Origin: Narcine bancroftii
Taxonomy: Eukaryota
NCBI RefSeq assembly: GCF_036971445.1
Contig: NC_091477.1
Location: forward strand, 113,737,716-113,772,000
Length of the DNA stretch: 34,285 nt
Direction: 5' to 3'
Shown here: positions 2,490 through 24,883 of the stretch, piece by piece
Layout of the letters: each line of letters opens with the position of its first letter
Position numbering within the stretch: the first letter of the stretch is position 1
Translations under genes and position numbers: made by a program
The notes under the pieces: generated by a model
Seen by the model: only the letters and a program-made list of their open reading frames with translations
The model's database searches: none
What the model was told of the DNA's origin: nothing

Positions 2490-2686
2490 TGTAGTTCTGA
2501 TTTACACAGATGATAACATATTTCCCAGCATGCAATGTGTGTGGTTGGACAGAAACCGGAAGTGGTTTACCATGGGAGTTGCGGGCGTTGTCACTGGAAG
2601 TTGGTTGAAGCAGCTCAAGGAAAGTCAGTTAAGTGTTTAAACCCACGTAAAGTCGTTCTTCTTCAAAGACCAAGCATAGAGTAACA
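2490..2686 (+). repeat. 5' LTR
   Basis: TG...taACA; core cagaaac..gaagtggttt..gcgggcgttgtc.ctggaagt..gttgaagcagctcaaggaaa shared with 5859-6038; left boundary approximate. Confidence 0.75.
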
Positions 2687-2699
2687 TGGTGCCAGAAGT
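2687..2699 (+). promoter_or_regulatory. Primer binding site, tRNA-Leu-like
   Basis: TGGTGCCAGAAGT directly after the LTR-terminal CA; resembles the TGGTGTCAGAAGT Leu PBS. Confidence 0.75.
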
Positions 2700-2725
2700 T
2701 TTTGAGTGAGTAGGAGTTAGTAAGC

Positions 2726-3887
2726 ATGGATAAGCCAAGTCGTCCCACACCAATGCAGTTTACTGGCAATCTAGCTGATAATTGGAAATGTTTCAAACAG
2801 AGATTCAACATTTATTTAGAAGCTGGTGGAATGGGAGAGACTGATTGAAAACGAAAAGTGTCTATGTTTCTGCATGTGATGGGTGAAGATGCCTTGGATA
2901 TCTATAACAGTTTTCAAGTCGATGAGACAGCTTTCACACTGGACACTCTGATGACAAAATTTGAGGAGTGTTTTGTTCCAAGTGAAAACATTATGTTTGA
3001 GAGATTCAAGTTTTTCTCTTGTGACCAGAAGCAAGGTATAAGCTTTGACTAATACTTAGCCGAGCTTCACACACTGAGTAAGTCCTGTGAATTTGGAGAT
3101 TTGAAAAATTCACTTGTTAAACACAGAATAGTTTCCAGATAATGGAGCTGGAGAAAGACAGTTGCATGAAAAAGATTTGACTCTGGTAAAGGTTGTGAAT
3201 ATGTGTAGGATAGCAGAGAGCATACAACCAGAAGCTAAGGAGCTGCACAAGACAGAGACAACAGTTAAGGAGCTGCATAGATTAGACACAATAGGGCATG
3301 CAATGAAAACAGCTAAGCAGAGCTCCAGGAGTTTCCCAAAGCAACAACAAAGGAAAATAGTTAGCAAATACAGCAGGTGCGGAGGTAGATATATTCCAAA
3401 GATGTGTCCTGCCTGTGGAAAGCCCTGCTATAAATGTGGGAAGAAGAACCATTTTGGAAAGTGCTGCAAAGCAGGGGATACCAAGAGAAAGGTATACCCA
3501 GTGGATGAAGAAATGGAGTTCATCGTGGATTCACTACAAACTGCTGCTTGGATCATTCCAGTGATTGTGAATGAGACAGTAATTCCATTTAAGCTGGATA
3601 CCAGACCCCGGTGAATCTGTTATCTATGGATGATTACAAGACCCTCAGCATGAAGGGCAAGATTTATCCTGTGAAATTAAAAGAGACAGGCTACACTGGA
3701 GAGAATGTTCCAGTAAAGGGGGGCTGTACGGTGACTTTCAAACAGAAAGGAAGGCATCTAAAGTCACAGTTACTGATTGTAGAAAAGAGAATACAGCCGA
3801 TATTAGGTCTGTGAGCATGACCTAGTGAAAAGAGTTTTCATAATGGCTTCACAGACCGAAGATAAGCACACAACACTCAAGGACGGA
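2726..3887 (+). pseudogene. Decayed gag + aspartic protease
   Basis: MDKPSRPTPMQFTGNLADNWKCFKQRF.., zinc knuckle CYKCGKKNHFGKCC, protease FKLDT(GA-like, frameshifted)..VNLL..PILGL; several stops and frameshifts. Confidence 0.9.
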
Positions 3888-4210
3888 AGGATAACTACAC
3901 TGGAGGAACAATTCCTTAACGTACAGAGAGGATCCACTTTATTACACGACACGAATGAAAAACTGGAAAATGAGGTGGCAAATAAGGATGCCTTCTTTCA
4001 CCAGCTAGAAGACAAAAATAGACAGTTACAGGAACACCTGGAACTGGCTGAACAGAAACTGCAGCAAACAATGGAAGAAGCAGAAATGTTACCAGAAGTA
4101 GAAGCTGAACTTGCCCAGCGAATTGCCGCTCTGACAAAGGCCGAGGAGCAGCATAGGAGGACATTTGAGACAATAAGAGACTCAGTTTGAAGAAAAAAAA
4201 ATCAGTTGTA
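3888..4210 (+). pseudogene. PPFIA2: Captured liprin-alpha coiled-coil cDNA fragment 1
   Basis: [70 protein letters not shown] matches the liprin-alpha N-terminal coiled coil; paralogue assignment tentative. Confidence 0.85.
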
Positions 4211-4261
4211 ACTTTTCAAGTAAATGGGGTCCTTTTATTAACTTTTTTTCATAATCTATAA

Positions 4262-4626
4262 CAGTGGTTCTCAACCTTTTTCTCAATCCACATCCCACTT
4301 TAAGTATTCCCTATGCCATCGGTGCTTTGTGATTAGTAAGGGTTTCCTTAAGGTGGGATGTGGGCGGAAAGAAAAAGTTTGAAAACCTCTGTTTTAATAG
4401 TCCCTCATTAACTCGTTATGTGCACGGTTTCATAACTCCAAAGGAAATGCGCCCATGACAATTTTTCCTCGAGCAAAATATTTCAGTAACAATTGGGTCT
4501 AGAGCAGTGATTCTCAACCTTCCCTTCCCATTCACATACCAATCCCTTACAAATCACAGAGCAGCAATGGCATAGGGAATACTTGAAGTGGTCTGTGAGT
4601 GGAAAGAAAAAGGTTGAGAGCCACTG
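4262..4626. mobile_element. hAT-type MITE
   Basis: TIRs CAGTGGTTCTCAACCTTTTT / AAAAAGGTTGAGAGCCACTG; 8-bp TSD atctataa/atctaaaa. Confidence 0.9.
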
Positions 4627-4948
4627 ATCTAAAAGATCATTTAGATCTTGTCTTGAGTTTTTTTAAAAAAATGGTAATGAAACTGTTTTTACCAAATAAC
4701 TTTGGAAAAGAAGAGCATCGAATTTGTAGAATAGTATCAATTTATTTATTTTTAAAAAAAATCTTTTTCAATTATGTTATAACTGATTAAATGATTACTG
4801 GATTATTTCCTTATTTTTATTTGTTTGTTGTGATATCTAATTTATATGTAACAGATTTTCTTTTGTATATTTCATTTTTCATATTATCTTTTATATTTAG
4901 ATAAATATGGCCTAGGTTTTGCATTATTTTATTATTTTAAAAATTTAA

Positions 4949-5069
4949 TTGAAACAGAAGAACCAGGAACTGCAAAGGGCCCGACAGAGAGAGAAAATGA
5001 ATGACCGACTTCTAAAAGAAAGAATGGCTGCATTAGAGGATAAGAATACATCCGATACAAGAATCTGAA
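4949..5069 (+). pseudogene. PPFIA2: Captured liprin-alpha cDNA fragment 2
   Basis: KNQELQRARQREKMN-DRLL-KERMAALEDKNT, then IQESE after a frameshift; DRLL and IQESE recalled as alpha-2-like. Confidence 0.8.
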
Positions 5070-5070
5070 C

Positions 5071-5775
5071 CAACTTGATAAAGAATTGGAAAATGCAAAC
5101 CATTTTCTTTCAACTACAAAGCTTAAAGGAGCCACCAGAGGAACTGGCTGTTATGCGGCCAAGATTGTGGAAGCCTCGAGTGAAGCTCACAGAGTTGAAG
5201 CCCAAGATCAATTGCTATTGGCAAAACAGGAAAATAAGAGAGTGAATAAATATTTGGATTAAATTGTGAAAGAAGTGGAGATGAAAGCTTTGCTTCTGAA
5301 GCACCTGAGTGAAGAATATGAACAGATGCATAAATCTGTGGCAAATCTCTCAACTAAATTAGAAGATGCCATGAAGTAAATTTGCCATCTACAAAAATGT
5401 ACTGATGAAGTGAATAAGCTTCATTACTCAACAGGGAGAATCAGAGATACAAAATGTAAGTATCAGATCTTTCACAGCAGAATAGGGGGCTTTTGATGGA
5501 ACTAGAAGATACACGAGGAAATCATATTTTATGTGAAGATGAAGTTAGTTCTGCTGACATAAGCAGCTCCTCTGAAGTGATTTCTCAGCACCTGGTGACC
5601 TATCATAATGTTGAGAACTGCAAAAGCAAAATCAACAGCTATTGGTATCTGTTCGAGAGCTCGCTGATAAACAGGAACTTCACAGATTTCTGAACTTCAG
5701 CTGAATCTTGCAGATGCCCTAAATGAACTTGAACAACTTTGTGAAGCCAGAAGTTATCAGATGCAACTGGTGGAA
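5071..5775 (+). pseudogene. TPR: Captured nucleoprotein TPR cDNA fragment
   Basis: [73 protein letters not shown]....YQMQLV is collinear with the TPR N-terminal coiled coil; intronless, with stops and frameshifts. Confidence 0.9.
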
Positions 5776-5843
5776 AGAGACTGACCATGGAATGTAGATA
5801 CTTTGTTATGTAGACTTAGTATTGTGTTTGTATGGATTTTTTT

Positions 5844-5856
5844 AAAAGGGGAAAGA
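5844..5856 (+). promoter_or_regulatory. Polypurine tract
   Basis: aaaaggggaaaga just before the 3' LTR TG. Confidence 0.75.
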
Positions 5857-5858
5857 TA

Positions 5859-6038
5859 TGTTGTTATGTGTGTAAGTAAGAACTACATTTCTCAATATGC
5901 AATAAGCGCGTTTGGTCAGAAACTAGAAGTGGTTTTCGATGGGATTTGCGGGCGTTGTCCCTGGAAGTCAGTTGAAGCAGCTCAAGGAAAATGAAGTCAA
6001 ACCCACAGAAAGTCGTTCTTGAAAGAACAACCATAACA
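5859..6038 (+). repeat. 3' LTR
   Basis: TGTTG...taACA; homologous to 2490-2686. Confidence 0.8.
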
Positions 6039-6149: not shown

Positions 6150-6220
6150 TGGAGGGTCACTGACTGAAAATATTAACTGTTTTTCTTTCTACAGATGCTG
6201 CCTGACGTACTGAGTGTTTT
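6150..6220 (+). mobile_element. Penelope-like pLTR fragment
   Basis: gactgaaaatattaactg..acagatgctgcctgacgtactgagt resembles 19555-19620. Confidence 0.5.
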
Positions 6221-22164: not shown

Positions 22165-24883
22165 TTCACCACTTCCTGCAGAATTTAGGGTCTGTGGATG
22201 AAGACAGAAAACATCGATTCAGAAAAAAAATTCAAAAAATATACAGTTATTTACAAATTTAATTAATCTGGGGGTCTGGAGATCCTAGTGGAGCGCCTAA
22301 GCATCAGAGGGCCTTGGGCTCCTTGGGTCTCCTGGTCCCCTTGTGAGGGAGAAGTGGCGGGCAGGGTCGATGGTGGAGGAGGGATGCACTTTCCTCCCAA
22401 ACTGGATTCCCTAAGGCCCTGAATGGGAGTGGCAAGAATGAGCTCCATGGCTCGTAGGGCACTTGAGGCAATAGACCCTCTGTTCTGGTGGGTGCCAGGT
22501 CCCTGGTGGAGATGGTGTCCTCCCTGCCATCTAGGTACTCCACATAGGCATATGTGGGATTGGCATGGAGCAGTTTCACCCTTTCCACCAGGGGGTAGGT
22601 CTTGCTTCTCCTCGTGTGCTTCCTGAGAAGGACTGGACCAGGAGTGGTGAGCCAGATTGGGAATGTAGTTCCCAATGCCAACCTTGTCTCGAAATTGAAG
22701 AGGAGCTCGTGTGGAGTAGTGTTGGTCACTACATAGTAGTGACCGGATGGAATGGAGTGCCATAGAAAGAACTTCCTGCCAGCGTAAGTCTGGAAGGTTT
22801 CTTGACTTGAGGGCCAGTTTGACAGCCTTCCAGACCATGATGTTTTCCTTTTCAACCTGCCCATTCCCCTGGGGTTGTATCTAGCAGTCCCACTGGATGT
22901 GACACCCCTTGCCAGCAGATACTTACGTAACTCTTCACTCATAAAAGATGAGCCCTGGTCACTATGTATATAGCCAGGATACCTGAACAGGGATAAAATG
23001 GAATCTAAGGCCTTTATGACTGATGAAGTGGATGGGTCTGGACATGGGATGGTGAACAGGAAGGAGAGTACTCATCAATGACAGAGAGGAAGAAACTGTT
23101 CCCGTTCATGGAGGGGAAAGGTCCCTTAAAATCAACACTGAGCCATTTGAAGGGCCTGAATGACTTAAGCAGGTGTGCCTTTGCGGGGCGGCAGAAATGT
23201 GGCTTACACTCCGTGCAGACCTGGCAGGACTTGGTCATTTCCCCAACATCTTCCATGGAGTTGGGCCTTGAGAAAATGAGCCATGCAGGTAATCCCTGGA
23301 TGGTAGAGCTCATTATGCAGAGACCACAGGTGACCAGTGTGTGCAGAGGCACAGCTTCTTCTGGATAAGGCAGCTGGAGGGTCATTAAGGGCTCCTGACT
23401 GATAGGTAATGTCATAATTGTAGGTGGAGAGCTCGATCCTCCACCTAGCAATTTTGTCATTTTTGATTTTGCCCCTCTTGACGTCATTGAACATAAATGC
23501 GACAGAGCGCTGGTCAGTGAGGAGCATACATTTCCTTCCAGCCAGGTCGTGCTTCCAGTGCCTCACGGCTTCTACAATGGCTTGAGCTTCCTTTTGCGTG
23601 GCCTTGCAATGTCTGAGGGGAAAAAAATGCAACCGGCCTGCCCGCCTGATTAAGGGTAGTGGCCAGGGCCACGTCTGAAGCGTCGCTTTCTACCCGGAAA
23701 GGTACATTCTTGTCCACCGTGAGCATAGCGGCTTTCGCAATGTAGTTTTGGAGGTAGTTAAAAGCCATTTGGGCTTCGTCCAAGAGGGGAAAAGAAGTGG
23801 CTTTTAAGAGAGGTCGAACCTTATCAGTGTATTGAGGGATCCGTTGGGCGTAATATGAGAAAAACCCCAGGCATCTCCTCAAAGCCTTCATGGTCCTGGG
23901 AACAGGAAGCTCCAACAGGGGGCGCATCGTATCAGGGTCAGGGCCAATGAAACCATTCTCCACCACGTAGCCAAGGATAGCCAGACATTTAGTTCTGAAC
24001 ACACACTTGTTAGAGTTATAAGTGAGGTTCAGGGGTTTCACTGCATGGAGAAATCTCTGAAGGTTGGCGTCATGGTCCTCCAGGGTATGGCCACAGAGTG
24101 TGGGTAGGGGAAGTTAGCCTTCAACCCATACTCATCAACCATTCTGTCCATCTGCCACTGGAAGATAGAAACCCCGTTAGTAATACTGAAAGGGACCCTC
24201 TGGAATTGATAGAGATGACTTTTAGCCTTAAATGTCATCTAAGGATGGTCCTCGGAATGGATTGGCAGCTGGTGATAAGCAGCTTTCGAATAGACCTGAT
24301 ACTGCGCAATATCATTCACCATGTCTGCAATTCGAGGAAGGGGGGAAGCATCCAGAAGTGTGCACCAATTAATACTTTGGCTATAGTCAATTACTAGCCA
24401 GGACTTGTTTTCCCCTTTTATCACCACCTCTTGTGCTCTCCACTGGCTAGTGCTAGGTTCAATGATACCTTCATTGAGTAGACGTTGTGTCTCAGACTTT
24501 ATGAAGTCTCGATCTGCTGTGTTGTACCTCCTGCTGTACAGATCCAGCAGGTAATCATCGATGGTCTCTCCTGGCTGTTGGCGACGTAGAGCAAGTCTGT
24601 GCCTCACTAAGATCTTGTTTTGCGACTTCAGGTGCCAAGCCTTCAAAGCCTCAATGGCAGCGTCATATGTAGTGCGGTCCCTGATGACTGCGTACCCTTT
24701 CGTTCCTACCCTGGGAATGAGTGTGAACCTCCTGAGTTCATCAGTGTGGAAGAGGTCTCTCGTCACTTTCAGGTAGGCCTGGAAGCCAGTACGTGAACTC
24801 CTCAGCCACTTTGGGGGACAGAAGGTCTATTAGCAGCGTACCTGGCTTGAGCAGTGCTTTCATCGGGAATAAGCTAATAAAAT

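Follow-up and report, generated by a model that had tools for sequence, protein, structure and literature searches.

A Gypsy-type element family of Narcine bancroftii that carries spliced liprin-alpha-2 and TPR sequences in place of reverse transcriptase, RNase H and integrase, probably acquired by template switching

Acutely transforming retroviruses carry gag-onc fusions in a defective genome and need a helper for their propagation. A related process is known from long terminal repeat (LTR) retrotransposons of animals. In the LTR-mediated retrocopies described by Tan et al. (2016; PMC5131818), internal open reading frames (ORFs) of the element are replaced by partial mRNA, and the template changes lie at short matches with a median of 6 bp; later rounds of non-autonomous amplification were also reported, as were two-gene chimeras with three switch points. 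In maize, the LTR element Bs1 holds pieces of three host genes in a chimeric ORF, which is reported to be transcribed and translated (PMC13317346). Here, we analyzed an element at positions 2490..6038 of a stretch of 34,285 nucleotides from Narcine bancroftii (NC_091477.1, positions 113,737,716 to 113,772,000 of the forward strand), hereafter called the window. This element very probably belongs to a family of Gypsy chimeras that hold spliced liprin-alpha-2 and TPR sequences in place of reverse transcriptase (RT), RNase H (RH) and integrase (INT), arose by template switching, and were spread by a helper. The mechanism as such is already known, as every step has been described by Tan et al. (2016; PMC5131818), and the spliced insert, the ORF replacement, the short matches at the switch points and the re-amplification are all seen here.

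The copy in the window is a decayed Gypsy element with the order LTR-primer-binding site (PBS)-gag-protease (PR)-[liprin-alpha-2, residues 311-491]-[TPR, residues 352-607]-polypurine tract (PPT)-LTR. No RT, RNase H or integrase was found between 3886 and 5770. The original prediction, which had been made from the letters of the stretch, had named this arrangement together with a captured liprin-alpha and TPR, and both statements were confirmed. The liprin insert matched the Pfam family LIP-1 (E 6.5e-36) and the human liprin-alpha-2 chain 8z22_C of the PDB (E 9.7e-23), and its top full-length matches were all liprin-alpha-2 from cartilaginous fishes. The TPR insert matched Pfam PF25785 (E 1.4e-8), and the TPR piece of a sister copy showed 75% identity to whale-shark TPR. 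Both host genes are present in the same 3.33 Gb assembly, PPFIA2 on G000:C23 and TPR on G000:C11 (the window lies on G000:C21), and both contain introns. The host liprin exons are 87-100% identical to the N. bancroftii protein P0002.

The liprin cDNA consists of two parts, both on the plus strand like all other oriented features of the element. The first (3879..4199) begins at residue 311 of P0002, covers host exons A-C and agrees with the host gene at 283/323 nucleotides, and the second (4958..5085), with copy-specific deletions, covers exons C-E up to residue 491 and agrees at 115/125. The TPR cDNA (5080..5775) comprises six host exons, corresponds to residues 352-607 of P0121 (whale-shark TPR) and agrees with the host gene at 641/703 nucleotides. 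We conclude that the inserts are spliced cDNA, because the host introns are absent across the five liprin and six TPR exons; they have been removed at the host exon borders. Around these internal coding pieces we found no poly(A), no 3' untranslated region and no duplication of the kind that marks processed pseudogenes. Furthermore, the pol segment between the outer joints is missing, that is, the inserts replace part of pol and do not interrupt it.

Short matches between the donors were found at all three joints. At joint 1 (3879..3886), where the element passes into liprin, pol-type copies and the liprin mRNA both read the 8-nt ATGGAAGA, which is decayed in the window copy. Joint 2 (5080..5085), from liprin to TPR, consists of the 6-nt match AAGGAA, which in liprin lies across the exon E|F splice junction; the liprin side of this match is present only in spliced RNA. 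At joint 3 (5770..5775), TPR meets the pol end at the 6-nt match GTGGAA. For random position pairs, the chance of matches of 8, 6 and 6 nt was P = 0.0002, 0.0036 and 0.0021, respectively. The identical liprin-TPR join occurs in 41 copies. The most common spacing is in frame both at joint 1 (29/40 copies) and at joint 2 (20/34 copies), and natural stop-free frames run across joint 1. Joint 3 is followed by a stop within three codons in 25/36 chimeric copies versus 0/4 pol-type copies; in the window copy, the stop in the TPR frame lies at 5782-5784. Judged from the sequence, the donor matches of 6-8 nt are likely the mark of RT template switching, in line with the mRNA origin that had been predicted.

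The presumed helpers are pol-bearing copies that share LTR, gag and PR with the chimeric copies and carry RT, RNase H and integrase further downstream. The pol-bearing relative L103 shows PR-RT-RNase H-integrase in the order typical of Gypsy elements, and the window copy is a non-autonomous derivative that kept the signals needed in cis, as had been proposed. The family resembles K02A2.6-like Ty3/Gypsy elements in its gag-PR relatives, the PR-RT-RH-INT order of its partner, the tRNA-Leu PBS and the 5-bp target duplication. In gag-PR, the named relatives comprise a protein from piranha (48%) and one of the K02A2.6-like type (34%), and the family may belong to the 'Mag' lineage. Unlike these relatives, it carries the liprin/TPR cargo, which occurred in 0/159 relatives checked. 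With acutely transforming retroviruses the family shares a defective genome, host mRNA in frame with gag, and the need for a helper. It differs from them in that the copies examined contain no env (the stretch from the end of pol to the PPT leaves no room for it), in the lack of an infection step, and in an omega of about 1.

The prediction that the element might be multi-copy also proved correct. A protein search returned 121 matches to the TPR piece, and removal of 7 TMED-type matches and one host exon left at least 113 loci. DNA searches yielded 636, 582 and 337 candidates, 40 of which were scored in each case; the 337 were obtained with liprin and TPR DNA, and the other two sets include sequence common with pol-bearing copies. 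An exact pattern across joint 1 was found at 86 sites, compared with one site for the control pattern; manual inspection assigned 30 of the 86 to the chimeric and 56 to the pol-type class. As the pattern was matched by 13/52 of the chimeric copies examined, the 30 chimeric sites correspond to approximately 120 copies with joint 1, which is a low estimate since the examined copies are the best preserved ones. The same scan lent no support to the impression, gained from the best 40 candidates, that chimeric copies outnumber pol-type copies. Among 100 distinct places examined, 68 contained liprin, 20 began pol, six had TPR only and six fell into none of these classes.

Full chimeric copies measure approximately 2.5-2.9 kb, and the LTRs of the family have TG...CA ends and are accompanied by PBS and PPT. 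Out of 13 elements with both ends, 7 showed 5-bp target duplications that match at 4-5 of the 5 bases, versus 3/156 for mismatched control pairs (an earlier census had covered five elements only). The median LTR-pair divergence was 0.168 for 20 chimeric copies and 0.163 for four pol-type copies. A gag-PR tree of 53 copies, with rough bootstrap support, was star-like with end branches of approximately 0.1; chimeric and pol-type copies were partly clustered (5 changes vs 11 in shuffles) and did not separate. No intact or domesticated copy was detected in the 100 places and 15 further loci, and the longest natural stop-free element frames comprised 236 and 221 aa. Likewise, none of the best 120 of 305 public protein matches (lengths 205-655 aa) contained both liprin and TPR domains. 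The family is a dispersed one with more than 100 loci, and it was presumably amplified in one burst.

Several further rearranged copies were noted. Three pol-type copies (L101, L107 and L108) have a large integrase deletion in common and form a second non-autonomous sub-family. In L128 (G000:C5:26157507-26161465), RT/RNase H-integrase runs straight into liprin-TPR-LTR, which combines a helper-type front with the cargo at the 3' end. Single recombinants that join pol to liprin or TPR elsewhere are L097, L128, L109 and L113, and L097, L109, L113, L034 and L175 represent single recombinants or deletions that link RNase H to liprin, RT to TPR, gag to liprin and PR to TPR. The 236-codon stop-free frame is that of L175 and runs across the PR end and TPR. 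A separate TPR retrocopy without a match to the present element is located at L096 (G000:C1:208402250-208402800), with rearranged TPR fragments (residues 196-251, 220-249 and 1229-1298) on both strands.

The order of the two captures can be approached through a gag-TPR sibling family with three copies (L095, L147 and L155). Here, PR and liprin are missing and an 8-nt match connects gag directly to TPR residue 294, from where TPR extends to about residue 900 with a common in-frame deletion. At the 3' end, which is kept in L095 and L147, the transition from TPR to the end of pol lies at another 6-nt match, again in frame. In addition, the recombinant L187 combines the gag-PR-liprin front of the main family with the long TPR tail of the sibling. 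Because of this sibling and the recombinant, the simplest path has TPR first, liprin second and the shortening at joint 3 last; the sequences suggest that TPR was captured before liprin. Of the original prediction that two mRNAs were captured sequentially, the two captures stand, and their order would follow from this path. Two independent TPR captures, instead of a single one that was trimmed, are possible as well. In L186, L187 and L188, the common deletion of the sibling removes TPR residues ~772-857 and with them the larger part of the SPOCD1-binding region (residues 775-877 in a mouse study; PMC7618654), which is probably due to chance.

To describe the decay of the family, each copy was compared with the commonest letter in each alignment column. 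Outside CpG sites, the copies differ from it by 6.9-8.3%, and the omega-like ratios were 1.05 for liprin, 1.02 for TPR and 1.01 for gag-PR. The copies have decayed neutrally, with an omega of about 1. Relative to today's host genes, the commonest letters differ at 11/546 positions in liprin (10 synonymous sites and one other) and at 27/768 in TPR (17 and 10, respectively), and outgroup proteins assign approximately one non-CpG amino-acid change to the element lineage. Host synonymous change since capture amounts to 10/115 and 17/168 sites. As these values are close to the decay of the copies, capture presumably took place shortly before the burst. The sub-family defined by a 99-nt deletion is set apart by the deletion joint alone, and only 15/2485 column pairs were linked, 13 of them adjacent and of CpG type.

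The reading frame behaves differently in shared and private changes. Of 407, 180 and 212 codon columns, none has a stop as its commonest codon. Shared rearrangements that lie upstream of TPR codon 572 are in frame, namely joints 1 and 2 and the 99-nt liprin deletion (26/51 classed copies); further in-frame events are an 84-nt deletion (two copies), a liprin-TPR shortcut (two copies), and the 5' joint and internal deletion of the sibling. Among private indels of at least 10 nt, 39/140 are in frame. The joint chance of the six shared in-frame events is roughly 0.01, a value calculated post hoc. By composition alone, 62% of liprin × TPR matches and 43% of gag-PR × cargo matches would be in frame, and on account of the 62% the in-frame joint 2 was rejected as proof of selection. 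Near TPR codon 573, 16/49 copies carry a 19-nt deletion and the frame is kept in only 10/49; an A-run at this place has the host length in 4/19 undeleted copies, and three other A-runs are 82-86% unchanged. The last 35 codons of the TPR piece are frame-shifted in most copies. The suggested Gag-PR-coiled-coil frame is consistent with joints 1 and 2 and with the commonest codons, but in most copies does not extend to these last codons.

From these data we propose the following path. Host mRNA would have been co-packaged in the particle of the element, and the reverse transcriptase would have switched templates at the matches of 6-8 nt. TPR may have been captured first and liprin next, after which the TPR tail would have been shortened at joint 3. 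All of this may have preceded a single burst by a short time, in which pol-bearing relatives likely provided the enzymes for the spread of the chimera. The kept frame may have helped in cis, through RNA stability or translation-linked packaging, and not through a useful cargo protein. Some observations weigh against this scheme. The in-frame bias of the shared rearrangements exceeds what a purely passive passenger would show, and a benefit in cis is our tentative explanation of it. The order of capture rests on three gag-TPR copies and one recombinant. For joint 2, splicing from the donor of liprin exon E to a cryptic AG in TPR is another possible reading, and the sequence fits both. Finally, an intact pol-bearing copy was found in 0/20 examined.

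The boundaries of the TPR piece offer another way to look at the frame. According to a preprint, the pore-binding domain of human TPR comprises residues 357-606, of which 450-606 are the essential part (10.64898/2026.10.08.757499, bioRxiv). The captured residues 352-607, in whale-shark numbering, correspond to approximately human residues 351-605, with an offset of +1 at the N-terminus and a presumed +2 further on, and nearly coincide with this domain; the longer TPR piece of the sibling also includes it. TPR is tethered by Nup153 (PMC2770460), and the yeast retrotransposons Ty1 and Tf1 require nucleoporins of the basket or of the phenylalanine-glycine (FG) type (PMC5909446). A Gag-PR-liprin-TPR fusion, itself still a product of template switching, might therefore have been selected as a pore-binding domain on a coiled-coil stalk that tethers particles or cDNA to the nuclear basket and aids integration of the family, perhaps also of the helper. 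The shared in-frame rearrangements, set against the private indels, and the lack of stops among the commonest codons would fit such a role. We nevertheless consider it unlikely. Purifying selection was not seen, and the single change or so on the element lineage leaves little to test. Owing to the A-run and the 19-nt deletion near codon 573, most copies no longer have the end of the essential part in frame. By composition, in-frame matches are frequent, pol-type joints exceed chimeric ones by 56 to 30 in the exact pattern scan, and the domain match was recognized post hoc. Moreover, TPR is essential and far more abundant in the germ cells of the mouse than in neighbouring cells (PMC7618654), which alone would explain its capture. 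It is equally doubtful that the element trimmed TPR to the borders of a pore-docking domain behind Gag-PR, which would turn host-gene capture from an accident into an adaptation of the element.

The abundance of the essential TPR in the mouse germline (PMC7618654) would also suit a role of the cassette at the RNA level. At the time, approximately 1.3 kb of the 2.7-kb element hardly differed from host mRNA, and host-like sequence might blunt silencing by PIWI-interacting RNAs (piRNAs), as small RNAs against it would also hit the TPR mRNA. However, LTR, gag and PR would still be targetable and the keeping of the frame would be left unexplained, which makes such camouflage very unlikely. A variant in which the protein serves as a decoy for SPOCD1 is excluded, as residues 775-877 lie outside the TPR piece of the main family. 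The missing target duplication of the window copy and an A-run near 4191-4201 could be taken as signs of two processed pseudogenes made by long interspersed nuclear elements (LINEs) in a dead LTR element, or of an assembly chimera. We give this virtually no credence: the inserts replace pol and lack 3' untranslated region, poly(A) and duplication, the joints are shared by dozens of dispersed copies at independent loci, which refutes it, and the A-run is the edge of a later insertion. Capture by template switching with spread by a helper remains the reading we favor.

In our literature search, no report of a liprin-TPR family or of TPR capture was found; subscription papers, repeat libraries and the supplements of Tan et al., which may list larger copy numbers, were outside its scope. 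Most animal cases in the literature involve one copy or a few. The re-amplified cases given by Tan et al. (2016; PMC5131818) comprise few sites (18 for nine fly retrocopies), in contrast to a two-gene chimera with at least 113 loci, sub-families and helper recombinants in a cartilaginous fish. Like Bs1 (PMC13317346), the present LTR element contains several host gene pieces; in contrast to Bs1, every copy examined is broken, and the captured pieces derive from two animal coiled-coil proteins. New are the two-gene chimera with more than 100 copies in a vertebrate, the frame-keeping shared internal rearrangements, and the approximate coincidence of the TPR piece with the pore-binding domain. One vertebrate genome shows the whole path of LTR-mediated capture, with helper, two captures, trimming, recombinants and burst. 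Whether amplified cargos are passengers from abundant germline mRNAs or were chosen becomes a testable question, for which the pore-domain match and the in-frame bias give predictions.

The remaining features of the window copy are as follows. A global alignment of the 5' LTR (2490..2686) and the 3' LTR (5857..6038) gave 146 matches and 32 mismatches; together with the stops and frameshifts in gag, this agrees with the predicted decay. The 3' LTR starts with TA, and the 32 nt with which the 5' LTR starts (2490-2521) are inverted in place, in this copy, with a short inverted repeat of the LTR itself at the bounds of the inversion. A target-site duplication was not found at the flanks (GACAT vs ATAAT). 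The PBS (2687..2699) is complementary at 12/13 nt to the 3' end of a tRNA-Leu(CAA)-like gene with an intron. In other copies, the match measures 14 to 18 nt, with 14 nt in most and 18 nt in a few (L132, L095). The tRNA in L171 was identified by eye; ARAGORN called a tRNA in 0/3 loci, including this one. The interrupted gag (2726..3520) starts at 2726, contains a CCHC-type knuckle at 3426-3464 and shows a weak PNMA match (E 0.0015). It is followed by the aspartic protease and PR-RT linker (3521..3886), with a degenerate active-site motif at 3597-3605; pol-bearing copies share the sequence up to 3886. Final pol codons and the 3' untranslated region (5776..5843), which also occur in pol-bearing copies, lead to the PPT (5844..5856).

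Two items of the original prediction had to be revised. It had counted an AT-rich spacer with a miniature inverted-repeat transposable element (MITE) as part of the element and had treated the liprin sequence as two separate pieces. The spacer (4200..4957) is a later insertion in the window copy only, as the other copies pass straight from 4199 to 4958, and it represents a separate dispersed repeat with 226 candidates, of which 40/40 scored ones match. The two liprin pieces are a single capture that was split by this insertion and shortened by copy-specific deletions. A retained liprin intron was considered for the spacer and rejected, because it sits within exon C, none of the host intron borders corresponds to it, and it belongs to a dispersed repeat. 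The MITE (4262..4626), which is presumably of the hAT/Charlie type, is a second insertion; it has terminal inverted repeats and is flanked by an 8-bp target duplication (4254-4261 / 4627-4634). This site is empty in L223.

Family copies can also confuse gene annotation, as one TMED11-like model begins in a copy. This copy (L174, L216 and L221; G000:C8:29133001-29138425) lies on the same strand as a TMED11-like gene, ~1.9 kb ahead of the first native exon. The first two exons of the public model P0150 correspond to its TPR piece and 3' LTR end, and the model reflects either a chimeric transcript or an annotation artefact; no RNA record was listed for the TMED11 stretch. Elsewhere in the window, region 6190-6220 contains a motif that we take to resemble the tail of a common elasmobranch short interspersed nuclear element (SINE). 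On the minus strand, 22266-23071 holds two overlapping stop-free frames of 255 and 205 codons, which by eye look like integrase from an unrelated LTR element.

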